From NCBI GenBank assembly GCA_965223755.1, contig CBDCXF010000001.1, positions 937,256 to 1,001,255 of the forward strand: 64,000 bases of DNA, written 5' to 3'. The stretch's first letter is position 1, and the number at the start of each line of letters is the position of its first letter. The DNA is from Candidatus Multivoradales bacterium (GTDB lineage Bacteria; Acidobacteriota; Thermoanaerobaculia; Multivoradales; JAHEKO01). The position numbers were made by a program, and so were the translations under genes. Below the pieces are notes generated by a model. It did not search any database, had not been told where the DNA came from, and was given only the letters and a program-made list of their open reading frames with translations. Shown one piece after another: positions 21,931 through 42,853 of the stretch.

Positions 21931-24900
21931 AGGCCGCTCCGAAAAGGAGCGGCCCATTTGAAAGAAAGCCTCTAGCTCTGGCTAGCTAGCTTGAGAAGGT
22001 GCCCTAGCGCACCTCCACCGCCGGGTCACCGAGCAAGTTGTAGATCTTGAGCATGAAGTCGAAGACCTCACCATTGGACTGATCCAAGGTAGTCTTCACG
22101 GCTTCACCCAGTTCCACCGGACCGTGGCCAAATGCCGCGTCCAGCAGCTTCTGGTTCATCACATGCGCCGGATGGCTGTAGGAAAGGCCCGAGGGAGACC
22201 ACAGCCCAATTGCTCCACCCGTCGGCTCCATCACCAATTGCTCACCCAAGGTCGTCAACGACGGCCACGAGAAGTTCCCAACCACGCAGGTCAGCGAAGC
22301 CACGATCGGCAGACGGTCTCCGTTGCCAAAGCCAGGCACATCGGTCGACATCACCATGCCCTCCGAGGCAAAGCGGTCGATCCCGCCGTGACCCTGGAAG
22401 TTCACCCAAGACGCACCCACATACCACTCGGTACTGATCTGGCTGCGAGCCGTGGCCGTGTCCAGATCGCCCAAGGAGATGTGCGAGGTCGTCTTGATCC
22501 CGGATAGCTGATCCACCAAGACATCGGTGTCCATCGGGTAGATACCGGCCTGGTCGGCGTTGTCCGAAAGGAAGATGGCGCTCGATTCCCAAGCACCACC
22601 GCCGTTCTCATAGGCGATCAGCTTGTCAACGTAACTCTGAGCTTCAAGCCCCGTCTCAGCCGGAATGCGGCTGAAGATCACCTCGGGCGATCCGTTGCCG
22701 GTGACATCACCCAGGCCGATGTCCGAGGCCGCAAGGCCATTCGGCGTCGGCACGAAGCGCGCCGGAATGAGGTGGTCGGTGCGACCCGTGTAGTTCTTCG
22801 GATCGTGAGAACCCGTGCCCATCAGCACCACGTACTTGAGCTTCTCGCTCCAGCCGCTGTAGCCGTGCTCGGCCAGGGAAGCCAGACTCTCGACATCCGA
22901 GAGACCGAAGGCAAACTCGTCATAAACCTCTTCCAGGTCCACCACCATGGTCGAGTACTTCGAAGAGCGCAGGTTGGCCAGAGCCTCGGCCGCAGAGCGC
23001 GTCTCCGGCGTCGCCACCACCACGTACTCAGCACCGTCCGAGGTCTTGATCTTGGAAGGCGCGTCGGTACGCAGGTCGGACAAACGCTTCGCTGACGAAA
23101 CCGTAGACAGATCGTAGGTCGCCCCAGCCACCGTCGGCACCGTCACCGAGAAGCTGCCGTCAGCTTCTTCGGTGATCCTCGTCTTGCCCAAGTGGACCAG
23201 GTCGCCACCGTCGGAAGCAAAGGCCTCCACAGCACCCGCACTGAAGCCCTCCACCGTCGCCACGCCGTCGGCAAGAGCCGTGAAGCGCAAGCGATCGCCG
23301 ATCGCCCGCAGCGCCCGCGGATAACTGAGCGTAAAGCCGTCCACGTACACCACCGAGCCCGAGCTGCCCTCAAACACCAACTCAATGGTGTTGGCGTTGC
23401 TCAGCAAGGAGGAGTCGAAAGTGAAGCTGCCCACAAACATCTCGCGGTCCAACCACGAAGCTGTACCCACCTGCGTGCCGTTCACCTTGACACCCATCCG
23501 ATGACCGCCGCTCGGAGTAAACGTCGCACCCTGGAGGCGCACCTCCAGAGAGGCCGTACCCGAAGCCGGATCATTGGCCGCGATGGCAAAGCTCTGGGTC
23601 GCCGCGCCGCTCCAGGAGATCGACCAGCGCCAGTAGTCCGCATTGGGGTCGTCCTCGAGCCACAGCATCCCGTACACCTGCTCCTCGGCCTCGGAGGTCT
23701 CACTGTAGAGACCGCCGTAAAAAGGCGCGGGAGCGGCGCCGCTCTTGAGCGAGCCGGCAAGCTTCCCTTCACCGCGGCCGATCCAGTAGACGTTCTCATC
23801 GGTCGTGGCAAGGTCAATCGCCTCGCCTTCGAAGTAGAGGCCTGCTCCACCCTTCGGCGCCCACCAACCGATGGCGTTGCCGCGGTTAGTTACCATCACC
23901 GCATTGTCGCGGATCGACTTTTGGGTGTCGCTCTCACTGATACCCCAGGCCGTAGCAAGTTCTTGCGCGGAGACATACACCACCCCATCCTCGGTCACCG
24001 TACCCTTGGCCCAAGAGGTGCTAGCACCTCGACCGCGGGGACGGCCGTTGCGGCTCGGAGCCGCCGAGGAAACCGCACCGCGAGCACTCGGACCCGCAGC
24101 CGCTCGGACCGAGCCAGCTGACTTGGAGCCAGTTGACTTGGAGCCAGCTAACTTGGAGCCAGTTGACTTGCGGGCAGCCTGGCGCGCCTGGTAGCGCTCC
24201 GCCGGCGAAGCATCCCAAGCCTCACCGCTTGCCGTGAACGGGCCGTGCACGATCTCTTGACCCAGAACTCCGATCTCAACCACCACGTAGCGATCCCCTG
24301 GCTTGCCGGCAGGATCGAGAATCTCGTAAGTCGTACCCGCGCCAGCGCCAGGATCAGCCATCACCAGCTCGCTGTTGACCAAACTGTATTCCTTGGTTGA
24401 GCTGTCCCAGCGGTAGACGTCATAGGCCATCACTGCAGCCTCTGAAGCCGTGCGGAAGCTCACCTTGCCGCCCTGGGCACGCACACCCACCACCGTCGCC
24501 GGGTTGGGAGTAATCGTGAAGCCGGCATCCACATCCGTCACTTGATCCCCACTCTCGAGCACGAACACGTTGGTCAAGAATTCGCCATCCGCCTCGCCGT
24601 CGATCGCTGCATCATCAACGTAGACATCGCTGTCATTGGCGATGTCCTGGCTGGTGTCCGTGGGGTCCGGATCACCCACATCCTGAGCCGTTGCCGTCGC
24701 CGTGTCATAGGAACCCGAAGTCGGATCGATGCCCACGATGTAGTTGCCGGGAGGCAGCGGTTGCTCACCGTCCACCAAGGTAAACAAGTAGGCACCTCCG
24801 ACCGTCGTCTGCTGATCCACAAAGGTCAGTTCGTCAGGATCAACCGTGCCGTCATTGTCGGTGTCATCCCAGCGATACAGCGTCGCCACTCCATCAACCG

Positions 24901-27900: not shown

Positions 27901-28338
27901 ACTCACCTTCGTCCTGGATGCCGTCGCCGTCGGCGTCGTTCCAGATCCGGTCGCCGATCGCGCCGGTGCCGGTGTTGGTGTCGGTCTCATCGGTAGTTGA
28001 GTAGTTGTAGCCAAAGTCGACAATGTCGATGTCCTCGCCGGCATTGAGAGTGATCGTGGACTGGCTGTCCAAGGTCGAATCCGGATCGCCGGTCTGGTTG
28101 GTGAGACCCGTCGGCAGGGTGCTGGTGTCGACCGCCACCGTGTAGTCGCCAGGAGGCACATCGTCAAAGATGTAGTCGCCATTGGCATCCGACGTCGTGG
28201 TCGCGATCGCGGTTGTCGCATCGCAAGGCGAAACACCGGCCTCACAGAGGTATACCGTGACATTGGCAATGCCGTCTTCACCGGCATCCTGAATACCATC
28301 GCCGTCCTCATCCAACCAGATCGAGTCGCCGATCGAGC
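21931..28338. repeat. 6.4-kb direct repeat, copy 1 (shared 3' cassette plus terminator)
   Basis: Near-identical to 33233-39640 at a constant offset of 11,302 nt. The six-frame ORF sets are duplicated with single-residue differences. About 9 aa substitutions across 2,111 shared codons. Confidence 0.9.
21932..21954 (-). terminator. rho-independent terminator of giant gene 1
   Basis: ggccgctcc-gaaaa-ggagcggcc. On the minus-strand transcript it is followed by UUUUUCUUUUUCCC. Duplicated at 33234-33256. Confidence 0.65.
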
Positions 28339-31300
28339 CGGTCTCCGGAACCAGGCCCGCGTCTAGCGTCGTGTTGCTCTCGCCCGAGCCGAGGAAGAAG
28401 GTCGTCGTTTGACCCGTCGATGGATCAGCGTCGGAGTCGAGCGTGTCATCGCCGCCCGCGTCCTGAGTCGTGAAATCCCAGCCAGCCGGAGCGGTGAACG
28501 TCACCGAGTAGTTGCCCGACACCAAGTTGTTGAAGAGATAGGAGCCGTCAGCGGCGGTCGTCGTCACCAAGGTCACCGAATTGCCGAAAATATCGACTCC
28601 GGTCAGCGTCACGGTCACACCTTCGATGCCCGCTTCTCCGCCATCCTGAATGCCGTCGCCATCGTCGTCCGACCACACGGAGTCGCCAACGGACGCCGGC
28701 TGCACCAGTCCAGCGTCTACGGTGTCGTTGACCTCGCCCTGGGCGAGAGTGATGGTCCCGGTCTGACCGAAGACATTGATGTCGCTGTCGACGCTGTCAT
28801 CACCGCCGGCATCTTGAACGGTCGGCAAATAGCCGCTGGGCGCGACGAAACCAAGCTGGTAGTCGCCAGCGACCAGATCGTCAAACTCGTAGGAACCCGC
28901 AGGATCGATGATTCCATCTCCATCTACATCGGTGGTGCCATCGGAAGTCACCGTGGTGTAAAGAGCGTTGGAGGCGTCACACGTCGTCACTGTCTCCTCG
29001 CACAGGTACACCGTGACTCCAGAGATCCCCGGCTCGCCCGAATCCTGGATGCCATCACCGTCCAGGTCTTCCCAAACGAGGTCGCCAATAACCGACGTAT
29101 TGGTGCTCGGCGGCATGCAGAACTCGTCGGAGGCGCTCTCTGGTCCGGTGGTCGCCGTCGCCGTGTTGCAGATCTCGTCGGGTGGAGCGGGTAGACTATC
29201 CACCACCACTTGGAAGGTTACGGTCGCCGTTTGTCCAACATTCAGGACGAACGGAATCAACGCTCCTCCCTCATCAAGCGGAAACACTGTCGTTCCCACT
29301 CCGTCGTCAGCCAACGGTGCAGGCCCAGAGCCATCGTTGGGATCGACCGTCGTCGTATTGGGCACGTAGCTCACGAACGAGGGCAAAAAGTCCTCTACCG
29401 AAAGCGAGTTGATGGGCACAAATCCAACGTTGGTGAGATCCAACTGGTAGGTGATGGTTTCGCCGACATTGGGCTGTCCGTCCCCGTTCGGATCGTCGGT
29501 CACCGACCCAGACTTAACCGTCGCAATCGAGGCCACATTGGGAATCGCGGTGCCGAGGTCGATGGCCGGGCTACCGCCTGTGGCGGTATCGGGATCCTGT
29601 CCCCAGGCAACCGCAATCGCGGTCGAATCCTGGTCGGCGGCATCGTCGTCGCAGACCCAAATGGCCATGCCAGTCTGGTCGCCGTCGGGATCGTAGAGGA
29701 TGGTGCTGTCGAGGGGATCAACCTCCAAGCGCAGGTCGTACTCCAACCCGGTGACGGGATCGATATTGGGAGTGGCGACAATCGTCTCCAACTCCAAGGT
29801 GGCTCCGAGAAATGTGCCATCGTCAGCAGAGGGAAAAACGTCGCAAATTGCCAATGTCCAAGTACCAGCGGAACTCTCCCCGTTGAACGAAGTGTCGGCC
29901 CATAAAACGCTGCGCTCGTAGTTGAAATCGTTCTCAACAGTATCGTTGTCGCCATCGTCGAGGGCTCCGCCACTGCCGGTCAGATAGATGTCGTAGTTAT
30001 CCAGGGAATCGGTCCCGCTCGACGCAATCACGGTTACCGTCGTTCCGTCCGGCGATGTCAGCGTCGCCTGGATATCCCCTCGATAAGCATGCGAGGCCTC
30101 AAATCCAAGGTTGACCTCAGAGACAGTGAAGATGCCGGCAACGTTAAACGTCCGCACTAACTCTCCGCCGCCACAGGTGGTTGTCCCATCGATGGCCCCA
30201 TCTGTGCCGTTGTTGACGGTCGTTTGGATCGTCGATGTGCCGCTGGTCGCATCCGTGCCGTCATTGTCATAGTCGACGCACAGAGTGATCTTGCCGTCGA
30301 CCAAAGCGCTGCCGTCGACCGAATCCGCGGTGACCCACACCGGGCTCGAGTTTTCCGAGCTGGTAACCAGAGGATCGTTGCCAAATCCGAGGCCTACAAG
30401 AGCTTGTTGTGTGAGCTGGGTCTCCGGCACAAGAGTGAAACCCCAATCGTGGGCATCGCTGCTGTTGGGGACAGTGTTGGTCGTATCGTTGGTGTTGGCG
30501 TCGATGTCGATCGAGGCAATCGCGTAAAAAGCCTCCCCTGCGGGATCACACGTCGTGTTGTCGGTAGTGGTGCAGAAATGGGCACCGCTGCCGTTCGGCA
30601 TGACATAACTGGCCGTACTTCCGGCGGGCACGACCACGGTCGCCGTGCCACCGCCCTGCAGCTCAACCAGCACCGTGATACCGCTGGCCGAGGGGTTGTA
30701 CAGAGTCACCGAGGTGGTGTCGTCACCGCCCGAACTGGTCGGGTTGTAGTAGCTGTTACTCCAATCTTCCACGGGGAAGAGGGTGTAGAAGCGCGACTCG
30801 TAGTTGTCACAAATATCGCCCGCAAGGAGCCCAACTTGCACCGGGGCCGAGGACTCCACCGTTGCTCCTAGCAAAACTCCACCGTCGGCGAAATATGTCT
30901 GGCCTTCATTCAAGATCACCGTGGTGTCAACCACACCATCGGCGTTCAAATCCACATCCACGACCGTACCGTCTTCCTGGGCCATAACCGTCATACCGAT
31001 GTACTGGAAGGGTTCGTTGGTTTCGCTAAAAACGTCTTCTCCAATGGGGGCCTCATAGGCGGTGCCCCAGTTGTCAGTGGAGTACATCTCAAACGCACCG
31101 GCGAGCAAGGTCGTAGTGCTGTCTGCCCAATTGGCCTTGGTCATCGAGATGGTGTCAGTTGCCGCCACCTTGTCGCCCCCGTCGAAGTCGATGACCGACT
31201 CGAGGGTGGTAGAAGTCACCTGATTCTCAAGCAGGATGACGCTGCCCTGATCGAGCACGTCGCAGGCGTCAGCAGCACATCCTGGGGGCGCGCCGTTGGA

Positions 31301-32971
31301 AGCGTCTCCGTCACCCCACACCTCCGTCGTTGCCTGCAACGGAGCATTGATCTCGTCCTCGAAACCGTCCTCCCAGTGGTCGTAATAGATGATGGTGTTA
31401 TCGCGCAACACCGCAATCGAGGTATAGGAACTGGTCGGGTCGACCGGCGCGGACACGCTCGGGCAGCTCTCTCCGCCGGTCGTCGCGTTGGGATAGATCG
31501 ACTGCAACGCTGCCAGCAGCTCGTCCTCGGGTAGAGGCATGTAATAGGTCGTGACCGGTGGCGGTCCCTGTGAAGGCGGAACATTAACGACCACGGTGTT
31601 GGAGTTGACTGGCGAAGTCTGGTCGCTGTCCACGCTCGCGGTGTTGGAGATCGAGCCGGCAGTCACATCGGCCGCCGTCACCGTGTAGGTTCCTGTCAGC
31701 ACACAGCTTTCGCCCGTATTCACCGAAGCACAGGTTTCACTACTGGGAGTCAGTGGAAGGCCGGTGTCGCTGACGACAACGTTGGTGAAAGTTGTCGCAG
31801 GGGCCGCATACACCTCCACCTCCCCAATATTGAGCGCGTCGCCTCCAGGGTTAGTCCCCGATTTTTGCAGACGGACATATCTACCCGTGACTCCGCCGAC
31901 CGGAACATTGAAGTCTTGACCTGTGGTCGTCGAAGGAAGCTGGAATTCGAACTCCGCGGTGGCGCGGGCGTCGGACAGGTTGATCGCCCCGCCGCCCGCC
32001 GTCGGAAACGGATCGTCGGAGACCAGCACGTAGACATTGCCAAGGCGATCCGAGCAGCAGTCATCGCGGTTGAAGATGGCGATGGAGTCGATGAACTGCA
32101 GTGAGCCCAAGTCGACCTGCCACCAATCGTTGACCTCTGTACCGGCAGTATGGGCCATGCCTTCAAAGGTGTTCGCGCCTGTCGTATCACCATCGATGGC
32201 ATTGGCGGCCACGAGGTTGTTGCCGTTACTGAGAGTCGTCCACTGGCTCGCCGTCCCCGATAACGCCACGTTGGTTGGAGACCCACTAAATCCAGCGGTG
32301 GCCGTAACCGTGTAGGTCAATACATCGCCCTCGGAGACACGCCCGTCGCCGTCTCCATCTGCATTGGTCGGCGTTGACTTGACGATCTGTAGCTCGCTAG
32401 TCGACGGCGGCGTGCCATCAAACTCGAGAGTCAACGACTGGTAGGAAGGTTGGGTGCCCGACGGCCCCGCCGTCCAGGTCATGGTCAGGGTCCAAATCCC
32501 CATTGCTTGCTCGCCGTCAAACGCTGACAAAGCGTTTTCGGGAATGCGATCGCGTCCGGTTGCTGGAGCTGTATGGTTGGTGGTATCCGATTCGAGCGTC
32601 GTCACCGCTTCGTCATCGAGACGCGCGAACAGGTTCTCGCCCAGAGCCGCAAGTTGGTTGCCCACGTGAAGCAAAACTGAAGTGCCGATCGGAGACTGCA
32701 ACGATACGTCGATCCCGCCACGGTTGATCGTCGTCAGACTGACGACCGCGTTGAGGTCGTTGACGGTAAAGTCATCGGTAACGTTGATGGTCGCCGTCAC
32801 CGTCCCTGCCGGGCCGCTGGCGGTGCTGTCGGTGTAGTTGAATGGATCGGCCGCCGATGGGCCGGCTGCCAAAGCCAAGACGCCAACGACCAACGCGAAT
32901 CGCCGAAAAGTGGATCGGCAATGTCGTCCATGCAAAAGAGACCCTTTTAGGGCCTTGGCTGGTTCTTTCAT
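22004..32971 (-). CDS. giant secreted Ca-binding surface protein 1, about 3,655 aa. Order: signal peptide, P-domain, DUF11, discoidin, P-domain, SdrD-B-like repeats with dockerin-like Ca loops, C-terminal peptidase C25 (gingipain-like) domain
   Basis: ATG at 32971 with a GGGGAG RBS and signal FRRFALVVGVLALAAGPSAADP (the ORF is open to 33082). Proprotein-convertase P-domain-like segments (DVSLQSPIGTSVLL and GDIQATLTSPDGTTVTVI). F5/8-C discoidin (WWQVDLG). About 10 SdrD-B-like modules (IGDxIWxDxDGDGIQDxGE). Three blocks of DxNGDGxIDxxDDG triplets. C-terminal C25 motifs YVVLMGTGSHD, NFQGHGG, LTCVVGNF and LLGDPAVEVR. The 3' 6.4 kb is more than 99% identical to 33233-39640. Confidence 0.8.
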   Translation of the reverse strand: MKEPAKALKGSLLHGRHCRSTFRRFALVVGVLALAAGPSAADPFNYTDSTASGPAGTVTATINVTDDFTVNDLNAVVSLTTINRGGIDVSLQSPIGTSVLLHVGNQLAALGENLFARLDDEAVTTLESDTTNHTAPATGRDRIPENALSAFDGEQAMGIWTLTMTWTAGPSGTQPSYQSLTLEFDGTPPSTSELQIVKSTPTNADGDGDGRVSEGDVLTYTVTATAGFSGSPTNVALSGTASQWTTLSNGNNLVAANAIDGDTTGANTFEGMAHTAGTEVNDWWQVDLGSLQFIDSIAIFNRDDCCSDRLGNVYVLVSDDPFPTAGGGAINLSDARATAEFEFQLPSTTTGQDFNVPVGGVTGRYVRLQKSGTNPGGDALNIGEVEVYAAPATTFTNVVVSDTGLPLTPSSETCASVNTGESCVLTGTYTVTAADVTAGSISNTASVDSDQTSPVNSNTVVVNVPPSQGPPPVTTYYMPLPEDELLAALQSIYPNATTGGESCPSVSAPVDPTSSYTSIAVLRDNTIIYYDHWEDGFEDEINAPLQATTEVWGDGDASNGAPPGCAADACDVLDQGSVILLENQVTSTTLESVIDFDGGDKVAATDTISMTKANWADSTTTLLAGAFEMYSTDNWGTAYEAPIGEDVFSETNEPFQYIGMTVMAQEDGTVVDVDLNADGVVDTTVILNEGQTYFADGGVLLGATVESSAPVQVGLLAGDICDNYESRFYTLFPVEDWSNSYYNPTSSGGDDTTSVTLYNPSASGITVLVELQGGGTATVVVPAGSTASYVMPNGSGAHFCTTTDNTTCDPAGEAFYAIASIDIDANTNDTTNTVPNSSDAHDWGFTLVPETQLTQQALVGLGFGNDPLVTSSENSSPVWVTADSVDGSALVDGKITLCVDYDNDGTDATSGTSTIQTTVNNGTDGAIDGTTTCGGGELVRTFNVAGIFTVSEVNLGFEASHAYRGDIQATLTSPDGTTVTVIASSGTDSLDNYDIYLTGSGGALDDGDNDTVENDFNYERSVLWADTSFNGESSAGTWTLAICDVFPSADDGTFLGATLELETIVATPNIDPVTGLEYDLRLEVDPLDSTILYDPDGDQTGMAIWVCDDDAADQDSTAIAVAWGQDPDTATGGSPAIDLGTAIPNVASIATVKSGSVTDDPNGDGQPNVGETITYQLDLTNVGFVPINSLSVEDFLPSFVSYVPNTTTVDPNDGSGPAPLADDGVGTTVFPLDEGGALIPFVLNVGQTATVTFQVVVDSLPAPPDEICNTATATTGPESASDEFCMPPSTNTSVIGDLVWEDLDGDGIQDSGEPGISGVTVYLCEETVTTCDASNALYTTVTSDGTTDVDGDGIIDPAGSYEFDDLVAGDYQLGFVAPSGYLPTVQDAGGDDSVDSDINVFGQTGTITLAQGEVNDTVDAGLVQPASVGDSVWSDDDGDGIQDGGEAGIEGVTVTLTGVDIFGNSVTLVTTTAADGSYLFNNLVSGNYSVTFTAPAGWDFTTQDAGGDDTLDSDADPSTGQTTTFFLGSGESNTTLDAGLVPETGSIGDSIWLDEDGDGIQDAGEDGIANVTVYLCEAGVSPCDATTAIATTTSDANGDYIFDDVPPGDYTVAVDTSTLPTGLTNQTGDPDSTLDSQSTITLNAGEDIDIVDFGYNYSTTDETDTNTGTGAIGDRIWNDADGDGIQDEGELGIEGVTVLLAEVETVIDGAIDLNGDGVIDASDSGTVLDDNGDPLDIINGQIDLDGDGSITAADDGTLNGVTVIDGQLDVNGDGVIDGSDDGTAEIPIATTTTDSTGNYAFDDLDPGVYTLTVTDDNNVLTGYTQTGDPDHFGSTDTSAAANDGTTTSPIVLAPGDVVVNTDFGYQNTSLADVSGTVYLDADGNGANDIGTGSDDGIEGVTVNLVETYDIIDGQIDVNGDGVIDGNDDGTVDGINVIDGQLDVNGDGVIDGNDDGSVGGVTVIDGEVDINGDGVIDATDDGTLGIIVATTTTDENGDYTFTDVPAGDYNVVVGDTANVLEGLSQSGDPDAVLDDQTSVTVGGTDVTDLDFGYTPPGQNSDTGLIGDNIYLDADGDGTQDADEAGLEGVTVNLYDDLDGDGVLDPGEPIIATATTNENGSYYFGGLDPNAHYIVEIETSTLPNGGTGLTNTDDPDGGGDSTSAVDLGASGGIDLDQDFGYVASTPNTIGGTVWEDTDGNGTLDETGAGLEGVTVDLYEAAGIIDGGVDVNGDGVVDGNDDGTFGGIAVIDGAFDVNGDGVIDANDDGSINGYDIIDGQVDYNGDGAIDGSDDGTLLGDLVGTTTTDANGDYSFEGLPDGTYAIDVTDENNVLGGMWHSDGPNDGADNNSQDDPYLINVSGGTTDSTGDFGYYVDPGSVGDTVFYDYDGDGVQDTGEPGISGVTVEMTISYPDGSTVTLVTVTDANGVYSFDNLLADEDYNGNTGDGSTEPTYTVSVDMTQDALIGYASTEDGSGATADSSETQGSGVDGDADMVSGTSAYPEQGTTDDTNDFGVQSVAQLGDFVWEDVDGDGIQDAGEPGIAGVVVTLTGTDLFGNAVSLTTTTSDGTTDVDGDGTIDPAGSYIFNNVPFSTTPYTITFDTSGLADTWEATVVDNETGPDGDGDGSVFDPEGGGGDNDASRSGSGETDVDVLLTQGVSDFSIDAGFYRPTSIAGELFADDPVNGTQDAGDGTVDGVATLYRWDDTDNDGTVDPDELTFVDQQTTVGGAYLFTLVDGEQPLPPGNYIVGIDPTSGSYDTATATAQDVGDPDPTDTSQDIANDSDVYVDDAAIDGEADGEFLTNVFVLESGDQVTDVDAGFTITPNPATVVGVRAQGGKVSFRTASEAAVMAYDVYRWDSSTKEYSLVNSELVMADPGAGAGTTYEILDPAGKPGDRYVVVEIGVLGQEIVHGPFTASGEAWDASPAERYQARQAARKSTGSKLAGSKSTGSKSAGSVRAAAGPSARGAVSSAAPSRNGRPRGRGASTSWAKGTVTEDGVVYVSAQELATAWGISESDTQKSIRDNAVMVTNRGNAIGWWAPKGGAGLYFEGEAIDLATTDENVYWIGRGEGKLAGSLKSGAAPAPFYGGLYSETSEAEEQVYGMLWLEDDPNADYWRWSISWSGAATQSFAIAANDPASGTASLEVRLQGATFTPSGGHRMGVKVNGTQVGTASWLDREMFVGSFTFDSSLLSNANTIELVFEGSSGSVVYVDGFTLSYPRALRAIGDRLRFTALADGVATVEGFSAGAVEAFASDGGDLVHLGKTRITEEADGSFSVTVPTVAGATYDLSTVSSAKRLSDLRTDAPSKIKTSDGAEYVVVATPETRSAAEALANLRSSKYSTMVVDLEEVYDEFAFGLSDVESLASLAEHGYSGWSEKLKYVVLMGTGSHDPKNYTGRTDHLIPARFVPTPNGLAASDIGLGDVTGNGSPEVIFSRIPAETGLEAQSYVDKLIAYENGGGAWESSAIFLSDNADQAGIYPMDTDVLVDQLSGIKTTSHISLGDLDTATARSQISTEWYVGASWVNFQGHGGIDRFASEGMVMSTDVPGFGNGDRLPIVASLTCVVGNFSWPSLTTLGEQLVMEPTGGAIGLWSPSGLSYSHPAHVMNQKLLDAAFGHGPVELGEAVKTTLDQSNGEVFDFMLKIYNLLGDPAVEVR

Positions 32972-33232
32972 GAACTCCCCGGCGAGTGCCACCCGACTGA
33001 AGATGACTGCGGAGTGGTCTAATGACTCACGCCAGTCACTACCGTCAAGTCCTTTGTTCGGCAGTAAGCGTCCCCCAAACACTTACTAGGGTGGGGCGAT
33101 CACGGGATCGCCCGTGGATCATGTTGGCCGAACAGGCGGCCAACAAGTGCGCAAATTGTCACCGTCTGGCGATAATGTCAACTGTTGTAGCCATGCAGTA
33201 CGGAGGGGTTGGGGAACGGGCACACAAGAAAT

Positions 33233-36200
33233 AGGCCGCTCCAAAAAGGAGCGGCCCATTTGAAAGAAAGCCTCTAGCTCTGGCTAGCTAGCTTGAGAAG
33301 GTGCCCTAGCGCACCTCCACCGCCGGGTCACCTAGCAAGTTGTAGATCTTGAGCATGAAGTCGAAGACCTCACCATTGGACTGATCCAAGGTGGTCTTCA
33401 CGGCTTCACCCAGTTCCACCGGACCGTGGCCAAATGCCGCGTTCAGCAGCTTCTGGTTCATCACATGCGCCGGATGGCTGTAGGAAAGGCCCGAGGGAGA
33501 CCACAGCCCAATTGCTCCACCCGTCGGCTCCATCACCAATTGCTCACCCAAGGTCGTCAACGACGGCCACGAGAAGTTCCCAACCACGCAGGTCAGCGAA
33601 GCCACGATCGGCAGACGGTCTCCGTTGCCAAAGCCAGGTACATCGGTCGACATCACCATGCCCTCCGAGGCAAAGCGGTCGATCCCGCCGTGACCCTGGA
33701 AGTTCACCCAAGACGCACCCACATACCACTCGGTGCTGATCTGGCTGCGAGCCGTGGCCGTGTCCAGATCGCCCAAGGAGATGTGCGAGGTCGTCTTGAT
33801 CCCGGATAGCTGATCCACCAAGACGTCGGTGTCCATCGGGTAGATACCGGCCTGGTCGGCGTTGTCCGAAAGGAAGATGGCGCTCGATTCCCAAGCACCA
33901 CCGCCGTTCTCATAGGCGATCAGCTTGTCAACGTAACTCTGAGCTTCAAGCCCCGTCTCAGCCGGGATGCGGCTGAAGATCACCTCGGGCGATCCGTTGC
34001 CGGTGACATCACCCAGGCCGATGTCCGAGGCCGCAAGGCCATTCGGCGTCGGCACGAAGCGCGCCGGAATGAGGTGGTCGGTGCGACCCGTGTAGTTCTT
34101 CGGATCGTGAGAACCCGTGCCCATCAGCACCACGTACTTGAGCTTCTCGCTCCAGCCGCTGTAGCCGTGCTCGGCCAGAGAAGCCAGACTCTCGACATCC
34201 GAGAGACCGAAGGCAAACTCGTCATAAACCTCTTCCAGGTCCACCACCATGGTCGAGTACTTCGAAGAGCGCAGGTTGGCCAGAGCCTCGGCCGCAGAGC
34301 GCGTCTCCGGCGTCGCCACCACCACGTACTCAGCACCGTCCGAGGTCTTGATCTTGGAAGGCGCGTCGGTACGCAGGTCGGACAAACGCTTCGCTGACGA
34401 AACCGTAGACAGATCGTAGGTCGCCCCAGCCACCGTCGGCACCGTCACCGAGAAGCTGCCGTCAGCTTCTTCGGTGATCCTCGTCTTGCCCAAGTGGACC
34501 AGGTCGCCACCGTCGGAAGCAAAGGCCTCCACAGCACCCGCACTGAAGCCCTCCACCGTCGCCACGCCGTCGGCAAGAGCCGTGAAGCGCAAGCGATCGC
34601 CGATCGCCCGCAGCGCCCGCGGATAACTGAGCGTAAAGCCGTCCACGTACACCACCGAGCCCGAGCTGCCCTCAAACACCAACTCAATGGTGTTGGCGTT
34701 GCTCAGCAAGGAGGAGTCGAAAGTGAAGCTGCCCACAAACATCTCGCGGTCCAACCACGAAGCTGTACCCACCTGCGTGCCGTTCACCTTGACACCCATC
34801 CGATGACCGCCGCTCGGAGTAAACGTCGCACCCTGGAGGCGCACCTCCAGAGAGGCCGTACCCGAAGCCGGATCATTGGCCGCGATGGCAAAGCTCTGGG
34901 TCGCCGCGCCGCTCCAGGAGATCGACCAGCGCCAGTAGTCCGCATTGGGGTCGTCCTCGAGCCACAGCATCCCGTACACCTGCTCCTCGGCCTCGGAGGT
35001 CTCACTGTAGAGACCGCCGTAAAAAGGCGCGGGAGCGGCGCCGCTCTTGAGCGAGCCGGCAAGCTTCCCTTCACCGCGGCCGATCCAGTAGACGTTCTCA
35101 TCGGTCGTGGCAAGGTCAATCGCCTCGCCCTCGAAGTAGAGGCCTGCTCCACCCTTCGGCGCCCACCAACCGATGGCGTTGCCGCGGTTAGTTACCATCA
35201 CCGCATTGTCGCGGATCGACTTTTGGGTGTCGCTCTCACTGATACCCCAGGCCGTAGCAAGTTCTTGCGCGGAGACATACACCACCCCATCCTCGGTCAC
35301 CGTACCCTTGGCCCAAGAGGTGCTAGCACCTCGACCGCGGGGACGGCCGTTGCGGCTCGGAGCCGCCGAGGAAACCGCACCGCGAGCACTCGGGCCCGCA
35401 GCCGCTCGGACCGAGCCAGCTGACTTGGAGCCAGTTGACTTGGAGTCAGTTAACTTGGAGCCAGTTGACTTGCGGGCAGCCTGGCGCGCCTGGTAGCGCT
35501 CCGCCGGCGAAGCATCCCAAGCCTCACCGCTTGCCGTGAACGGGCCGTGCACGATCTCTTGACCCAGAACTCCGATCTCAACCACCACGTAGCGATCCCC
35601 TGGCTTGCCGGCAGGATCGAGAATCTCGTAAGTCGTACCCGCGCCAGCGCCAGGATCAGCCATCACCAGCTCGCTGTTGACCAAACTGTATTCCTTGGTT
35701 GAGCTGTCCCAGCGGTAGACGTCATAGGCCATCACTGCAGCCTCTGAAGCCGTGCGGAAGCTCACCTTGCCGCCCTGGGCACGCACACCCACCACCGTCG
35801 CCGGGTTGGGAGTAATCGTGAAGCCGGCATCCACATCCGTCACTTGATCCCCACTCTCGAGCACGAACACGTTGGTCAAGAATTCGCCATCCGCCTCGCC
35901 GTCGATCGCTGCATCATCAACGTAGACATCGCTGTCATTGGCGATGTCCTGGCTGGTGTCCGTGGGGTCCGGATCACCCACATCCTGAGCCGTTGCCGTC
36001 GCCGTGTCATAGGAACCCGAAGTCGGATCGATGCCCACGATGTAGTTGCCGGGAGGCAGCGGTTGCTCACCGTCCACCAAGGTAAACAAGTAGGCACCTC
36101 CGACCGTCGTCTGCTGATCCACAAAGGTCAGTTCGTCAGGATCAACCGTGCCGTCATTGTTGGTGTCATCCCAGCGATACAGCGTCGCCACTCCATCAAC

Positions 36201-39200
36201 CGTGCCGTCGCCCGCGTCCTGCGTTCCGTTGACCGGATCGTCGGCAAACAACTCACCGGCAATCGACGTTGGACGGTAGAAACCGGCGTCGATCGAAAAG
36301 TCGGAAACTCCCTGAGTCAGCAGCACGTCGACATCGGTCTCTCCAGAGCCGGAGCGAGAAGCATCGTTGTCACCACCACCACCCTCAGGGTCAAACACCG
36401 AACCGTCTCCGTCACCATCCGGGCCGGTTTCGTTGTCGACCACTGTCGCCTCCCAAGTGTCGGCCAGACCGGAAGTGTCAAAGGTGATCGTGTAAGGCGT
36501 CGTGCTGAACGGCACATTGTTGAAGATGTACGAACCGGCAGGATCGATCGTCCCGTCACCGTCCACATCAGTCGTACCGTCCGAAGTCGTCGTCGTCAGA
36601 CTCACAGCGTTGCCAAAAAGGTCCGTGCCCGTGAGCGTTACGACTACGCCCGCGATCCCAGGCTCGCCGGCATCCTGGATACCGTCACCGTCCACGTCCT
36701 CCCACACGAAGTCGCCAAGCTGCACCACGGATTGAACGCCGAAGTCGTTGGTGTCGTCGGTCGTTCCCTGCTCGGGGTAGGCCGAAGTCCCGGACACCAT
36801 GTCGGCATCGCCGTCGACTCCCGATCCTTGAGTCTCGCTGCTGTCAGCAGTCGCCCCAGAACCATCTTCGGTCGAGGCGTAGCCGATAAGGGCGTCCTGG
36901 GTCATGTCAACCGAGACGGTGTAGGTCGGCTCAGTCGAACCATCTCCGGTGTTGCCGTTGTAGTCCTCGTCAGCCAGTAGATTGTCGAAGCTATAAACCC
37001 CGTTTGCATCTGTAACCGTCACAAGCGTGACCGTTGAACCATCCGGATAAGAGATCGTCATCTCAACGGTGACCCCGGAAATTCCCGGCTCGCCCGTATC
37101 TTGAACGCCGTCACCGTCGTAGTCGTAGAAAACTGTGTCCCCGACCGAGCCCGGATCCACGTAGTAGCCGAAGTCGCCGGTCGAGTCCGTCGTACCGCCT
37201 GAAACGTTGATCAGGTACGGATCGTCCTGACTGTTGTTGTCGGCGCCATCATTGGGGCCGTCCGAGTGCCACATACCACCCAGTACGTTGTTCTCATCGG
37301 TGACATCGATGGCGTAGGTGCCGTCCGGCAGACCTTCAAATGAGTAGTCCCCGTTGGCGTCGGTGGTCGTCGTGCCAACCAGATCACCCAATAGGGTGCC
37401 GTCGTCGCTGCCGTCGATCGCACCGTCGCCGTTGTAGTCAACTTGCCCGTCGATGATGTCGTAGCCGTTGATCGAGCCGTCGTCGTTGGCGTCGATCACG
37501 CCGTCGCCGTTGACGTCGAAGGCGCCGTCGATCACCGCGATGCCACCAAAGGTGCCGTCGTCGTTGCCGTCCACCACCCCGTCGCCGTTGACATCGACTC
37601 CGCCGTCAATGATGCCCGCGGCCTCGTAGAGATCCACCGTCACGCCCTCAAGGCCGGCGCCGGTCTCGTCCAGAGTGCCGTTGCCGTCGGTGTCTTCCCA
37701 CACCGTGCCACCGATGGTGTTGGGCGTCGAGGCGACGTAGCCGAAGTCCTGATCGAGATCGATGCCGCCCGAAGCCCCCAGATCCACAGCAGAAGTCGAA
37801 TCCCCGCCGCCGTCCGGATCGTCGGTGTTGGTCAGACCCGTCCCGCCGTTGGGAAGCGTCGACGTCTCGATCTCCACAATGTAGTGAGCATTCGGATCGA
37901 GACCACCAAAATAGTAGCTGCCGTTTTCGTTCGTCGTCGCAGTCGCGATGATCGGCTCACCAGGGTCCAAAACGCCGTCACCGTCCAGGTCATCGTAGAG
38001 ATTCACGGTGACCCCCTCAAGCCCGGCCTCGTCCGCGTCCTGCGTACCATCCCCGTCAGCGTCGAGATAGATGTTGTCGCCGATCAAACCGGTATCGCTG
38101 TTCTGGCCCGGCGGCGTATAGCCGAAGTCCAAATCGGTGACATCCGTGCCCCCGACCGTGACCGAAGTCTGGTCATCGAGAACCGCATCGGGATCGCCGC
38201 TTTGGCTCAATCCCTCGAGGACATTGGCGGTGTCGCCCACCACCACGTTGTAGTCACCCGCAGGTACATCGGTGAAGGTGTAGTCGCCGTTTTCATCAGT
38301 TGTAGTCGTGGCAACAATGATCCCCAGCGTGCCGTCGTCCGTCGCATCGATGACGCCGTCGCCATTGATGTCGACTTCACCGTCGATCACCGTCACCCCA
38401 CCGACGCTGCCGTCATCATTGCCGTCGATAACGCCGTCGCCGTTGACATCAAGCTGGCCGTCGATGACGTTGATGCCATCGACCGTCCCGTCGTCGTTGC
38501 CGTCGATAACGCCGTCGCCGTTGACGTCGATTTGGCCGTCGATGATGTCGTAGGTCTCGACCAAGTTGACCGTGACCCCCTCAACGCCAGCGTCGGAACC
38601 GGTACCGATGTCGTTGGTACCGTCGCCGTCGGCATCCAGGTACACCGTTCCGGAAACATCCGCCAAACTGGTGTTCTGGTAGCCGAAGTCGGTGTTGACA
38701 ACCACATCACCAGGAGCCAAAACGATCGGTGAAGTTGTGGTGCCGTCGTTGGCCGCCGCACTGGTGTCGGTCGAACCGAAGTGATCGGGGTCACCGGTCT
38801 GGGTGTACCCGGTCAGCACGTTGTTGTCGTCCGTCACCGTCAAGGTGTACACCCCTGGATCGAGGTCGTCAAAAGCGTAGTTGCCGGTGCTATCCGTGGT
38901 AGTCGTCGCAATCGGAATCTCAGCCGTACCGTCGTCGCTGCCGTCGATGACTCCGTCACCGTTGACATCCAACTGGCCGTCGATCACCGTCACCCCATTG
39001 AGCGTGCCGTCATCGGCCGCCGTAATCGAACCGTCGCCATCGAGGTCGATTTGACCGTTGATGATGTCGAGCGGGTCACCGTTGTCGTCGAGCACCGTGC
39101 CGCTGTCGCTGGCGTCGATGACGCCGTCGCCGTTGAGGTCGATCGCACCGTCGATGACGGTCTCCACCTCGGCCAGCAAGACCGTGACCCCTTCAATGCC

Positions 39201-39640
39201 CAACTCACCTTCGTCCTGGATGCCGTCGCCGTCGGCGTCGTTCCAGATCCGGTCGCCGATCGCGCCGGTGCCGGTGTTGGTGTCGGTCTCATCGGTAGTT
39301 GAGTAGTTGTAGCCAAAGTCGACAATGTCGATGTCCTCGCCGGCATTGAGAGTGATCGTGGACTGGCTGTCCAAGGTCGAATCCGGATCGCCGGTCTGGT
39401 TGGTGAGACCCGTCGGCAGGGTGCTGGTGTCGACCGCCACCGTGTAGTCGCCAGGAGGCACATCGTCAAAGATGTAGTCGCCATTGGCATCCGACGTCGT
39501 GGTCGCGATCGCGGTCGTCGCATCGCAAGGCGAAACACCGGCCTCACAGAGGTATACCGTGACATTGGCAATGCCGTCTTCACCAGCATCCTGAATGCCA
39601 TCGCCGTCCTCATCCAACCAGATCGAGTCGCCGATCGAGC
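33233..39640. repeat. 6.4-kb direct repeat, copy 2
   Basis: See copy 1. Divergence begins immediately 5' of the codons for IGDSIW (39640 versus 28338). Confidence 0.9.
33234..33256 (-). terminator. terminator of giant gene 2 (duplicated hairpin)
   Basis: ggccgctcc-aaaaa-ggagcggcc. Lies inside the duplicated segment. Its U-tract is weaker than in copy 1. Confidence 0.5.
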
Positions 39641-40976
39641 TGGGTATATCGTCATTGACGATGGTGCAGGTCACTTCGTCGCCCGGATTCAACTGAACCG
39701 ATCCAGCGTCAAAGGAAGTTCCCTGCATGGGGACCGCTAGGCCTGCGTTCGTACCGCTGTCGTAGACGCAGGACCAGGTGCCTTCCGCATAACCGGCAAC
39801 ATCGATCTCGCTCATGGTGAACGGAATCGGGTTGCCGTTTTCGTCCTCAACGACAGGGGCGAACTGTTGGGAGGTATAGGTCGTCGTGGAGCCGGATACC
39901 GTGGATGTCCAAATCGGAGCATCGGGTTCCGAAGAAGTGATCCCAAAGGCGTCGACGCCAGCGGTTCCGCCGTTGTCGTTGATGACCTGCTTGACCAGGG
40001 TCACGCCAGCATTGTCGGCGCAGGCCTCTTGAACAATTGCCGTGAGATCGGCCTCGAAGTTCTCAAACGACCCCGCCACGATGTCGGCGGTCTCGATACT
40101 CGGGTTGGCTGGGTCGTAATACTCGGGTCCCGCGATCAACTCGAACTCGGCCGTCCTCCAGGTCCCGCTGGTACTGAGGGCATAACCTATTAACTTGGTG
40201 CTGGTGGCCTTGATCAGGTTGGCCTCTTCAATGTTGTGATCCCGCATTTCGTCGTCAAGAACATTAGGAATCGGCTCGTGGGAAGTCCAGACTTGCTGGT
40301 AGAAGCCGGGATTTTGATAAGGCTCGTGATGATGGCTCGCGTTGGGGGCACCATCGGAAACAAACACCACCAGCTCCACCTTGCCGTCAGCCAACTGGCT
40401 CTCGCGCGGAAGCATCGTATGGTAGGTCTCGTAGAGGGCATCATCCCAGTTGGTAGCAACGCGATAGTCGCCGACGTGATCGCGAGGGTCGTAGGCAGCG
40501 ATAAAATCATCGATTATCGGTTGATTGCCGGCGCCGTTTGCCTCGAAGAAGTTGCTGTAGCTCGCGGTGGCCTCGCCGGCGTCGACCCACGCGCCGAACA
40601 TCATCAACGCCATCGAACTCTCGCCCACTGCGGCGCTGAGGGCGTCGTACAACCCTTGAACGCCAGCTTCTACTAAGGGCATCCCTGTCAAGCCGATCGA
40701 CCCCGTCTCGTCGACGACCACGATCATGTCTATGGCGCAGGCCTCGACAAGATCCGGATTGTCGGTCACTGCCAGGTCTTGGCCGCAAGTGGCCCCCACG
40801 CATGGACTGGTATCGGTCGCAACGTTGGGATCCGGATTGGCCCACACCGCTGTCGGCGTAATCGCGATCAGGTTAATCACCATCGCAAACAGTGCCATCG
40901 AAAGCACATTCACGATGTCCGTCAATCTGCCCCACTGGCGAAAGACTCCGCCCGAAACACCAAATATCACACTCAT
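33306..40976 (-). CDS. giant secreted Ca-binding surface protein 2, 2,556 aa. Order: N-terminal VWA domain, then the same SdrD-B/dockerin-like stalk and C-terminal peptidase C25 domain
   Basis: VWA MIDAS motif VVVDETGSIG in the unique 445-aa N-terminus. From IGDSIWLDEDGDG onward it is identical to protein 1 except for scattered substitutions (DGTNDIGTGSDAGVEG, VVQLGDF, DTNNDGT, KLTDSKS, LLNAAFGHG). Confidence 0.8.
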   Translation of the reverse strand: MSVIFGVSGGVFRQWGRLTDIVNVLSMALFAMVINLIAITPTAVWANPDPNVATDTSPCVGATCGQDLAVTDNPDLVEACAIDMIVVVDETGSIGLTGMPLVEAGVQGLYDALSAAVGESSMALMMFGAWVDAGEATASYSNFFEANGAGNQPIIDDFIAAYDPRDHVGDYRVATNWDDALYETYHTMLPRESQLADGKVELVVFVSDGAPNASHHHEPYQNPGFYQQVWTSHEPIPNVLDDEMRDHNIEEANLIKATSTKLIGYALSTSGTWRTAEFELIAGPEYYDPANPSIETADIVAGSFENFEADLTAIVQEACADNAGVTLVKQVINDNGGTAGVDAFGITSSEPDAPIWTSTVSGSTTTYTSQQFAPVVEDENGNPIPFTMSEIDVAGYAEGTWSCVYDSGTNAGLAVPMQGTSFDAGSVQLNPGDEVTCTIVNDDIPSSIGDSIWLDEDGDGIQDAGEDGIANVTVYLCEAGVSPCDATTAIATTTSDANGDYIFDDVPPGDYTVAVDTSTLPTGLTNQTGDPDSTLDSQSTITLNAGEDIDIVDFGYNYSTTDETDTNTGTGAIGDRIWNDADGDGIQDEGELGIEGVTVLLAEVETVIDGAIDLNGDGVIDASDSGTVLDDNGDPLDIINGQIDLDGDGSITAADDGTLNGVTVIDGQLDVNGDGVIDGSDDGTAEIPIATTTTDSTGNYAFDDLDPGVYTLTVTDDNNVLTGYTQTGDPDHFGSTDTSAAANDGTTTSPIVLAPGDVVVNTDFGYQNTSLADVSGTVYLDADGDGTNDIGTGSDAGVEGVTVNLVETYDIIDGQIDVNGDGVIDGNDDGTVDGINVIDGQLDVNGDGVIDGNDDGSVGGVTVIDGEVDINGDGVIDATDDGTLGIIVATTTTDENGDYTFTDVPAGDYNVVVGDTANVLEGLSQSGDPDAVLDDQTSVTVGGTDVTDLDFGYTPPGQNSDTGLIGDNIYLDADGDGTQDADEAGLEGVTVNLYDDLDGDGVLDPGEPIIATATTNENGSYYFGGLDPNAHYIVEIETSTLPNGGTGLTNTDDPDGGGDSTSAVDLGASGGIDLDQDFGYVASTPNTIGGTVWEDTDGNGTLDETGAGLEGVTVDLYEAAGIIDGGVDVNGDGVVDGNDDGTFGGIAVIDGAFDVNGDGVIDANDDGSINGYDIIDGQVDYNGDGAIDGSDDGTLLGDLVGTTTTDANGDYSFEGLPDGTYAIDVTDENNVLGGMWHSDGPNDGADNNSQDDPYLINVSGGTTDSTGDFGYYVDPGSVGDTVFYDYDGDGVQDTGEPGISGVTVEMTISYPDGSTVTLVTVTDANGVYSFDNLLADEDYNGNTGDGSTEPTYTVSVDMTQDALIGYASTEDGSGATADSSETQGSGVDGDADMVSGTSAYPEQGTTDDTNDFGVQSVVQLGDFVWEDVDGDGIQDAGEPGIAGVVVTLTGTDLFGNAVSLTTTTSDGTTDVDGDGTIDPAGSYIFNNVPFSTTPYTITFDTSGLADTWEATVVDNETGPDGDGDGSVFDPEGGGGDNDASRSGSGETDVDVLLTQGVSDFSIDAGFYRPTSIAGELFADDPVNGTQDAGDGTVDGVATLYRWDDTNNDGTVDPDELTFVDQQTTVGGAYLFTLVDGEQPLPPGNYIVGIDPTSGSYDTATATAQDVGDPDPTDTSQDIANDSDVYVDDAAIDGEADGEFLTNVFVLESGDQVTDVDAGFTITPNPATVVGVRAQGGKVSFRTASEAAVMAYDVYRWDSSTKEYSLVNSELVMADPGAGAGTTYEILDPAGKPGDRYVVVEIGVLGQEIVHGPFTASGEAWDASPAERYQARQAARKSTGSKLTDSKSTGSKSAGSVRAAAGPSARGAVSSAAPSRNGRPRGRGASTSWAKGTVTEDGVVYVSAQELATAWGISESDTQKSIRDNAVMVTNRGNAIGWWAPKGGAGLYFEGEAIDLATTDENVYWIGRGEGKLAGSLKSGAAPAPFYGGLYSETSEAEEQVYGMLWLEDDPNADYWRWSISWSGAATQSFAIAANDPASGTASLEVRLQGATFTPSGGHRMGVKVNGTQVGTASWLDREMFVGSFTFDSSLLSNANTIELVFEGSSGSVVYVDGFTLSYPRALRAIGDRLRFTALADGVATVEGFSAGAVEAFASDGGDLVHLGKTRITEEADGSFSVTVPTVAGATYDLSTVSSAKRLSDLRTDAPSKIKTSDGAEYVVVATPETRSAAEALANLRSSKYSTMVVDLEEVYDEFAFGLSDVESLASLAEHGYSGWSEKLKYVVLMGTGSHDPKNYTGRTDHLIPARFVPTPNGLAASDIGLGDVTGNGSPEVIFSRIPAETGLEAQSYVDKLIAYENGGGAWESSAIFLSDNADQAGIYPMDTDVLVDQLSGIKTTSHISLGDLDTATARSQISTEWYVGASWVNFQGHGGIDRFASEGMVMSTDVPGFGNGDRLPIVASLTCVVGNFSWPSLTTLGEQLVMEPTGGAIGLWSPSGLSYSHPAHVMNQKLLNAAFGHGPVELGEAVKTTLDQSNGEVFDFMLKIYNLLGDPAVEVR

Positions 40977-42541: not shown

Positions 42542-42548
42542 GGCGGGC

Positions 42549-42851: not shown

Positions 42852-42853
42852 CC

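Follow-up and report, generated by a model that had tools for sequence, protein, structure and literature searches.

The window analysed in this work is the whole 64,000-nt stretch of Candidatus Multivoradales bacterium shown above (contig CBDCXF010000001.1). Two giant genes, g1 and g2, which are predicted to encode secreted adhesin-like proteins, are located in tandem on its minus strand with g2 directly upstream of g1. Both genes share a 6.4-kb repeat that encodes the C-terminal part (tail) of the proteins, and they carry different N-terminal parts (heads). The locus is probably the result of a recent partial duplication in which the 3' end of one gene was fused to a new head. The features of the locus are listed in Table 1. 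The open reading frame (ORF) of g1 is limited upstream by a GTG at position 33082. The ATG at position 32971 is preceded by GGGGAG, and this ATG behind a GGGGAG ribosome-binding site is the likely real start of g1. The proteins of both genes are recorded in the cluster table on one NCBI/ENA contig of 1,606,433 bp.

The two copies of the repeat, copy A in g1 and copy B in g2, were compared at a fixed offset. The alignment of both copies is ungapped at 11,302 nt, an offset that was also obtained using a repeat finder. Only 35 mismatches were identified over 6,408 nt (99.45% identity), and the coordinates, the offset, and the identity of the two segments that were given in the initial annotation are all correct. 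Single-nucleotide differences within the 2,110 shared codons account for 34 of the mismatches, where 25 are synonymous and nine are nonsynonymous, and the shared protein part is identical at 2,101 of 2,110 amino acids (aa). The earlier count of about nine codon substitutions is thus right for amino-acid changes but not for codon differences. The 35th difference is located in the 3' untranslated region (UTR), in the terminator loop at position 21941. The divergence of the shared codons according to the Nei-Gojobori method is 0.016 for synonymous sites (dS) and 0.0019 for nonsynonymous sites (dN), with a dN/dS ratio of 0.115. The synonymous excess is highly significant (binomial p=2e-9), so the substitution pattern indicates that both copies have been kept by selection since their last common sequence.

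The edges of the repeat are sharp, and beyond either edge a few bases suffice for identity to reach background. The 5' edge (in gene orientation) lies within codon 1582 of g1 and codon 446 of g2, and SIGDSIWLDEDGDG, the first strand of an SdrD_B domain, begins directly after it. The 3' edge lies a few bases beyond the terminator hairpin, and the copied unit takes in the stop codon, the 3' UTR, and the hairpin, GGGCCGCTCC-TTTTC/T-GGAGCGGCC, in which the C/T position of the loop differs between the copies. The sequence therefore bears out that the duplication includes the 3' UTR and the terminator hairpin, as had been proposed. No similarity was found between the heads of g1 and g2 using blastp and blastn, in agreement with the unrelated heads that had been described upstream of the junction, and blastn shows no similarity between the upstream regions of the two genes. 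The scan for consensus promoters returned nothing usable 5' of g1 or g2. No decayed homology was found in the flanks of the repeat, no microhomology or mobile-element signatures were found at its junctions, and no tRNA genes or Rfam families were found in the window. A 14-nt unit, TGATTCGGATTAGT, occurs twice in tandem 5' of g2 (window ~41035-41065). The presence of two intact tandem genes with a near-identical stalk and C-terminal enzymatic domain is supported.

Table 1. Features of the g1-g2 locus and of loci compared with it. Positions are those of the window except for the last four rows, which refer to the respective locus. (+11302) denotes the copy in g2 at that offset.
Feature	Position	Strand	Details
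g2	33306..40976	minus	2,556 aa; ORF, translation, Pfam; identical to database protein P0012
g1, ORF	22004..33082	minus	3,692 aa; matches length of database version P0162
g1, likely real gene	22004..32971	minus	ATG at 32971; ~3,655 aa
Repeat copy A	21931..28338	minus	g1 tail, 3' UTR, and terminator; 6,408 nt; fixed-offset comparison
Repeat copy B	33233..39640	minus	g2 tail, 3' UTR, and terminator; 6,408 nt; fixed-offset comparison
g1 intrinsic terminator	21931..21955	minus	10-bp stem and T-tract; repeat ends just beyond
g2 copied terminator hairpin	33233..33257	minus	one loop change; T-tract degraded to TATTTCTTGTGTG
g2-g1 intergenic region	32972..33232	minus	TTGACA-containing stretch and GGGGAG; own upstream region of g1
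g1-specific head	28337..32971	minus	aa 38-1582; Pfam and local SdrD_B hidden Markov model (HMM)
g1 P-domain 1 (P_proprotein)	32477-32758	minus	Pfam
g1 F5/8 type C (discoidin)	31820-32236	minus	Pfam
g1 DUF7507/CLIPPER_2	31616-31795	minus	Pfam
g1 conserved family N-terminal core	30233-31585	minus	IgGFc_binding-like stretch; ~450 aa
g1 P-domain 2 (P_proprotein)	29810-30121	minus	Pfam
g1 DUF11/CLIPPER	29147-29479	minus	Pfam
g1 extra SdrD_B (two)	28412-29089	minus	Pfam, local SdrD_B HMM
g2-specific head	39639..40976	minus	aa 1-446
g2 orphan alpha/beta region	~40017-40838	minus	~270 aa; MIDAS-like motifs
g2 SpaA_2 prealbumin-like domain	39660-40013	minus	aa 322-439; Pfam E=2.6e-9
Shared stalk	24632..28336; g2 copy 35934-39638	minus	g1 aa 1583-2817; ~10 SdrD_B (local HMM)
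DxNGDG Ca-loop repeats	26018-26329, 27029-27262, 27626-27781 (+11302)	minus	26 aa, 78-nt units; interrupt three SdrD_B
Beta-sandwich	24197..24499; g2 copy 35499-35801	minus	g1 aa 2862-2962; start of conserved C-terminal module
Lys/Arg-rich linker	23996..24196; g2 copy 35298-35498	minus	g1 aa 2963-3029; 67 aa; low complexity
PorU-like beta-domains	23027..23995; g2 copy 34329-35297	minus	g1 aa 3030-3352; NCBIfam, AlphaFold, PDB match
Peptidase_C25 catalytic domain	22013..23026; g2 copy 33315-34328	minus	g1 aa 3353-3690
TerC gene	21034..21771	minus	Pfam TerC; directly downstream of g1
Locus syntenic to L081	17104-50854		L081: GCA_040777565.1, contig JBEVUX010469100.1
L008 (Lentisphaerae), tandem pair	3338-18960		2,916 aa (DUF11) and 1,915 aa (LTD); last ~865 aa 63% identical
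L082 (metagenome), tandem pair	10001-27517		2,662 aa and 3,114 aa; last ~871 aa 44% identical
L005, tandem pair	9806-17995		two copies; second split into two ORFs, apparently interrupted
L050, adjacent pair			two adjacent family members, convergent

The head of g1 consists of a signal peptide, a P-domain, an F5/8 type C domain, a DUF7507/CLIPPER_2 domain, the conserved core, a second P-domain, a DUF11/CLIPPER domain, and two SdrD_B domains, in that order. Pfam agrees with the two P-domains, discoidin domain, DUF11, and extra SdrD-B modules that had been read from the sequence before, and it also identifies DUF7507. The signal region of g1 (window 32860-32971) contains a twin-arginine-like sequence, STFRRFALVV. 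The signal is probably of the Sec type with a long n-region, because export of a 3,655-aa calcium-binding protein through the twin-arginine (Tat) pathway seems unlikely.

The head of g2 begins with a signal-peptide-like N-terminus, as judged from the translation, and consists of an orphan alpha/beta region and a SpaA_2 domain that was absent from the description in the initial annotation. Its relatives in the databases are confined to the SpaA_2 part. No homologue of its N-terminal 264 aa was found among 5.8 billion proteins, and the head matches only itself among the 162 retrieved proteins of the family that is described below. Three motifs, DETGS, ATNWDDAL, and VSDGAPN, were read from the sequence in the order that is expected of a metal ion-dependent adhesion site (MIDAS), and a VWA/MIDAS fold is plausible for this head because of them. 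No Pfam VWA family (at E<=1) and no PDB sequence match were found for the head, and its AlphaFold model, which was built from the single sequence, is of low confidence (predicted local distance difference test, pLDDT, of 34). The VWA/MIDAS domain that had been assigned to g2 hence stands as a resemblance at the level of motifs, and it is not matched by Pfam, PDB, or any homologue.

The shared tail of both proteins begins with the stalk. The SdrD_B family (PF17210) scores 459 bits over 11 stretches in g1 and 279 bits over nine stretches in g2. The 26-aa repeats that interrupt three of the SdrD_B domains have the form xxxGxxVIDGxxDVNGDGVIDxxDDG and resemble the calcium loops of EF-hands and dockerins by motif, with Pfam matches that are sub-threshold. 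The stalk is followed by a beta-sandwich that has the signature VxWxT..E..GF.LYR in the consensus of the family alignment and to which no Pfam family was assigned. The part that is common to both members of the other tandem pairs described below also begins at this beta-sandwich. The linker behind the beta-sandwich has a Lys and Arg content of 21%, and it contains two of the nine residues that differ between the proteins of g1 and g2 (KLAGSK versus KLTDSK).

The tail ends with a peptidase domain. In both proteins, the Peptidase_C25 family (PF01364) scores 205 bits (E ~1e-60; cut-off 23), and the match covers positions 1-373 of the 374 positions of the profile. The catalytic residues are His3565 (22388-22390) and Cys3599 (22286-22288) in g1, and His2429 and Cys2463 in g2. 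The motifs NFQGHGG and SLTCVVG that contain them align with the GHG and ACV motifs and with His211 and Cys244 of RgpB. By sequence, both the domain score and the catalytic dyad place g1 and g2 in Pfam family C25 (clan CD). The alignment with RgpB is too weak at the S1 specificity residue for a reading of specificity. Both proteins end two residues past the C25 domain, and neither Pfam nor NCBIfam identified an LPXTG motif, a C-terminal domain (CTD) for sorting, or any other sorting domain in g1 or g2.

The last 665 aa were modelled with AlphaFold using an alignment of 27 family sequences, and the model has a mean pLDDT of 91.4. The best PDB match of the model is PorU (6za2, E=8e-27, TMq 0.57), and RgpB and Kgp come next, with matches to the catalytic half. 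The NCBIfam model of the T9SS (type IX secretion system) sortase, NF033707, scores 186-188 bits (E=1e-55) over positions 170-731 of 1095, below its cut-off of 420. Orthology with PorU was rejected, with the score below the cut-off, the terminal regions of the model missing, and the module being fused and not free-standing. Both g1 and g2 have signal-like N-termini, repeated stalk domains, and putative binding domains, as fibrillar adhesins do. The DUF11/CLIPPER, DUF7507, SdrD_B, and SpaA_2 domains are stalk domains of fibrillar adhesins (PMC12617251).

The family of the C-terminal module was identified through an exhaustive HMMER search in which the last 665 aa were queried against 1.84 billion cluster representatives. 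The search returned 11,488 representatives at E<=1e-3 and 3,206 at E<=1e-30, and the closest match to the tail, other than the proteins themselves, is 47% identical. A word-indexed search with the tail returned 11 distant matches of at most 29% identity and thus under-reports the family in comparison with HMMER. The retrieved family proteins span 638-4,096 aa. In 141 of the 160 family representatives (the matched retrieved proteins without g1 and g2, 640-4,096 aa long), no more than 15 aa lie between the end of the module and the C-terminus. The constant unit across the family is ~826 aa long from the beta-sandwich on (g1 2866-3692) and consists of the beta-sandwich, the Lys/Arg-rich linker, the PorU-like beta-domains, and the C25 peptidase, in that order. 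The catalytic His and Cys do not vary among 27 family members. The initial annotation had proposed a constant C-terminal module with a variable N-terminal part, and this holds across the family, in which head turnover on a constant module is the rule.

The equivalent linker of the family (~55-67 aa) has a mean Lys and Arg content of 19.7% compared with 6.6% for the whole proteins, and it is richer in these residues than the protein in 141 of 143 cases. The linker is strongly Lys/Arg-rich within proteins that are otherwise acidic. It is a possible autoprocessing site for a C25 peptidase of the Arg/Lys type, or a polyanion-binding tether.

The scan of GTDB species representatives with the tail identified 271 loci, all at 30-36% identity. 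These loci belong to Acidobacteriota (Thermoanaerobaculia, Aminicenantes, and Vicinamibacteria), Desulfobacterota, Nitrospirota, Lentisphaerota, Planctomycetota, Verrucomicrobiota, Anaerolineales, and some Gammaproteobacteria. To our knowledge, the phyla that host this family are largely without T9SS. The scan of metagenomes for close relatives of the tail identified one distant locus at 23% identity. The literature searched contains no account of giant adhesin-like proteins outside Bacteroidota that carry a C25 module at the C-terminus. Family genes in other genomes have internal tandem repeats (530-700 nt, 87-97% identity) inside or close to their large N-terminal regions, namely at L037 (14354-16219), L048 (3880-5215), and L059 (3173-5330), and on account of these three loci, repeat expansion inside family genes appears to be common.

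The gene g1 is most likely the parent and g2 a young chimera that carries a copy of the 3' end of g1, because g1 has the canonical head core, a continuous SdrD_B array, and the TerC-adjacent synteny. The core of the g1 head (aa ~500-950) and its DUF11 region (~1110-1316) are homologous to the N-termini of many family members. The homologues of the core include P0014, P0024, P0082, P0033, P0060, and P0025, which go on with SdrD_B domains and the C25 module. The SdrD_B array crosses the breakpoint in g1, where two more domains lie upstream, and abuts SpaA_2 in g2. The syntenic locus L081 of a related organism has the order HU-DUF885-YceI-family gene-TerC-PDZ with a single family gene of 1,061 aa. 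The proteins of L081 are 88% (HU), 73% (DUF885), 69% (YceI), 77% (TerC), and 44% (PDZ) identical to those of the window, and the flanking proteins are 63-88% identical with PDZ excepted. For the family gene of L081, the alignment with the tail is limited to the final ~806 aa (43% identity), and the gene has a short, different head. Because L081 has one family gene directly upstream of TerC, the comparison of the two loci indicates that the ancestral state is a single family gene in this position, which is the position of g1.

The window holds ~24 kb between YceI and TerC that contain PhzF-like, ELP3-like radical SAM/GNAT, and methyltransferase genes as well as g2 and g1. The first three (41225-45850) are extra genes that may have come with the g2 head or independently. 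The ELP3-like gene (42773-44599, plus strand) encodes a protein of 608 aa with Radical_SAM, Radical_SAM_C, and GNAT domains. The neighbourhood is also rich in genes for the scavenging of peptides and amino acids (503-2224, 4346-6037, 9293-10756, 11120-14882, 51175-52941, and 58559-61651). These genes encode an M19 dipeptidase, two M16 peptidases, an amidohydrolase, SNF and SSF symporters, and a TonB-dependent receptor with an N-terminal CarboxypepD_reg domain, and the set fits a proteolytic lifestyle for a diderm host. The host is a diderm, and OmpA/BON and MltA are also encoded in the window. No T9SS genes were found within the window.

The initial annotation knew of no described equivalent of this arrangement. 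However, the sdrC-sdrD-sdrE genes (PMC3098876), the babA/babB/babC genes (PMC5483490), and the rgpA, kgp, and hagA genes (PMC5266723) share its logic. The sdrC-sdrD-sdrE genes of S. aureus are tandem genes with N-terminal ligand-binding A regions that are only 20-30% identical, Ca-binding SdrD_B repeats, and a common C-terminal part. These genes are similar to g1 and g2 in being adjacent, in having different heads, and in having the same B-repeat domain (SdrD_B). In contrast, the Sdr proteins end in SD repeats and an LPXTG motif in a monoderm host, whereas g1 and g2 end in a PorU-like C25 peptidase in a diderm host and their shared part is 99.5% identical over 6.4 kb. Assignment of g1 and g2 to the MSCRAMM Sdr proteins was rejected, with no SD region, no LPXTG motif, and scores far below the NCBIfam cut-offs (213 versus 2500 for NF012181 and 176 versus 1700 for NF000535).

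The rgpA, kgp, and hagA genes, of which the peptidases belong to family C25, contain identical blocks that have been described as 'combinatorial modularity' and that confound assembly (PMC5266723). The catalytic domains of RgpA and RgpB are 97% identical (PMC10319874). The proteins of g1 and g2 are similar to the gingipains of P. gingivalis in the C25 family, the aligned catalytic His and Cys, the fold match, and the combination of shared blocks with differing modules. They differ in that the catalytic domain of gingipains is N-terminal after the propeptide, the shared adhesin domains are C-terminal with a T9SS CTD, and the genes are dispersed, whereas the peptidase of g1 and g2 is the last domain, no CTD is present, and the genes are adjacent. 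PorU is the best structural match over the 665-aa module and has the same catalytic dyad and multidomain fold. However, the first ~170 and last ~360 positions of the model are absent in g1 and g2, the sequence identity is ~14%, and a giant passenger carries the module fused at its C-terminus, whereas PorU is free-standing.

The babA/babB/babC paralogues form chimeras by gene conversion (PMC5483490) and the FLO adhesin paralogues of yeast recombine to chimeric genes (PMC3512402). Both systems are similar to g1 and g2 in that adhesin paralogues with much shared sequence give rise to new head and tail combinations. They differ in that the protein families are unrelated, the H. pylori loci are not tandem, and recombination was observed there, whereas for g1 and g2 it is deduced. 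The comparison with a mirror image of polymorphic-toxin loci that had been drawn earlier holds as an analogy only. Membership of g1 and g2 in a polymorphic-toxin or cassette system was rejected, with no orphan head fragments, immunity-like small genes, or recombinase found near the two genes.

The origin of the locus by recent duplication or conversion, as had been proposed, is supported. The locus is probably a recent partial duplication in which the 3' end of g1 was fused to a new head. This is favoured because there is no weaker homology outside the repeat, which is what a copy-and-join event leaves, whereas a conversion tract in older paralogues would usually be expected to be surrounded by a wider zone of lower identity. 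Several points weigh against it. Whole-length gene conversion between older paralogues would give the same pattern, and a simple tandem duplication does not yield the order head2-tail-head1-tail. A second event would be needed, such as a head replacement, another rearrangement, or the entry of the copied segment behind a sequence that already encoded a head, and the source of the g2 head was not traced among family or database proteins. The differences between the copies are patchy, where ten of them cluster in 27098-27338 (scan p=5e-5) and a stretch of 1,217 nt has none (p=0.02), which hints at some conversion activity. The coexistence of both tail copies is known from the assembly alone. Outer-membrane secretion, cell attachment, and peptidase activity are predicted for both proteins, in which Pfam and NCBIfam identify no C-terminal anchor or sorting signal.

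The same patchiness, together with the 6.4 kb of identity that make an excellent substrate for recombination, would also fit older paralogues with 3' regions that RecA-dependent gene conversion has homogenised time and again, so that one stalk and enzyme would be kept under two heads. Gene conversion among adhesin paralogues has been documented, for example in the bab genes (PMC5483490), and tandem pairs are old and recurrent in the family. We nevertheless consider such concerted evolution unlikely. Identity drops from 99.5% to nothing at both ends of the repeat, and the head of g2 is not of the family type. The cluster of ten differences lies in and next to the internal 78-nt repeats, and at least two of the g2 variants in it equal the sequence of the neighbouring repeat unit, so conversion within the gene would be sufficient to explain the cluster. 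The differences elsewhere are mostly even, with no mosaic of old and young blocks. Tandem family pairs with different N-terminal parts were also identified in other lineages (Lentisphaerae, an uncultured deltaproteobacterium, and a metagenome scaffold), and no long near-identical repeat was found in the tandem pairs of L008, L082, and L005. As the tails of other tandem pairs have diverged to 44-63% aa identity, sustained homogenisation is, on these sequences, not a trait of the family. The g1-g2 differences are in keeping with one event and purifying selection after it, and the claim that the shared part is kept homogeneous is therefore not upheld.

Near-identical repeats of 6.4 kb are also a classic assembly hazard. 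Two strain variants, or a repeat that was collapsed or expanded, may be written as a tandem duplication, the divergence of 0.55% is within the range of strain variation, and the identical blocks of rgpA, kgp, and hagA broke automated assemblies (PMC5266723). An artefact of this kind is very unlikely here, since both heads are joined to complete tails in frame and at the same codon, unique sequence spans the junction between the g2 terminator and the upstream region of g1, the recorded contig is 1.6 Mb long, and the substitution pattern is that of two selected genes. The same tandem arrangement is moreover present, in diverged form, in independent assemblies of other phyla. The initial annotation had also read the locus as a head-swap or cassette architecture. 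A dedicated system of programmed variation, with a constant module beneath interchangeable heads, would be in line with the enormous variation of N-terminal parts on the constant C-terminal module across the family, and g1 would be lost through recombination of one tail with the other, with a g2-headed gene left over. However, this deletion would be an irreversible loss and not switching, and the locus consists of no more than two genes, both complete and both with a start region and a terminator of their own. No promoterless or silent head cassettes, site-specific recombinase genes, inverted repeats, mobile elements, or tRNA were found at the boundaries, and a cassette architecture in the programmed sense is extremely improbable. 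The difference between the heads is ordinary domain shuffling on a conserved module and not dedicated switching. The recombination and assembly hazard that had been pointed out holds, as RecA-mediated deletion has an obvious substrate in the direct repeats of 6.4 kb.

According to the partial duplication, the last 6.4 kb of g1, a chromosomal gene, with ten SdrD_B domains, the C-terminal module, the stop codon, the 3' UTR, and the terminator, would have been copied. A head of 446 aa would have received the copied segment in frame, with the joint exactly at a linker between domains. The product would be g2, directly upstream of g1, of which the head contributes a signal peptide, an alpha/beta region, and a SpaA-type domain. 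Both copies would since have diverged by ~1.6% at synonymous sites under purifying selection as functional genes. The proteins of g1 and g2 are predicted to be exported as secreted, fibrillar, adhesin-like proteins. The array of SdrD_B and DxNGDG repeats may form a calcium-stiffened stalk. The heads may confer different binding through the discoidin, P-domains, and CLIPPER domains of g1 and through the VWA-like and SpaA domains of g2. The C25 peptidase may degrade substrates that are bound by the heads, or it may cut its own basic linker.

The latter possibility leads to a speculative reading of the tail as a cis-acting sortase or peptidase of the PorU type that takes the place of an anchor signal. 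In this reading, the exported protein would be cut by its C25 domain within the Lys/Arg-rich linker, and the cut would then release the adhesin stalk or transfer it to an acceptor on the cell surface. This self-anchoring is suggested by the position of the module, the Lys/Arg-rich linker across the family, and the fold match with PorU, only these three, and we regard it as quite doubtful. If true, the family would represent a widespread class of self-anchoring or self-processing giant surface proteins in diderm phyla without T9SS, and the conserved module would be the reason why any head can be bolted on.

The duplication in this locus is a clean and datable snapshot (dS ~0.016) of a surface protein gaining a new head while its stalk-plus-enzyme unit is re-used. 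It is useful as an example of a familiar route of surface-protein diversification and is not conceptually new, and the locus is a predictable site of deletion and misassembly. The re-used unit belongs to a very large uncharacterised family with thousands of clusters at 50% identity, in which a PorU/gingipain-like peptidase and a conserved basic linker are located at the usual place of the anchor in fibrillar adhesins. The candidate functions of the module are substrate degradation, self-processing, and self-anchoring, and its function could explain how environmental diderms display or deploy giant extracellular proteins.

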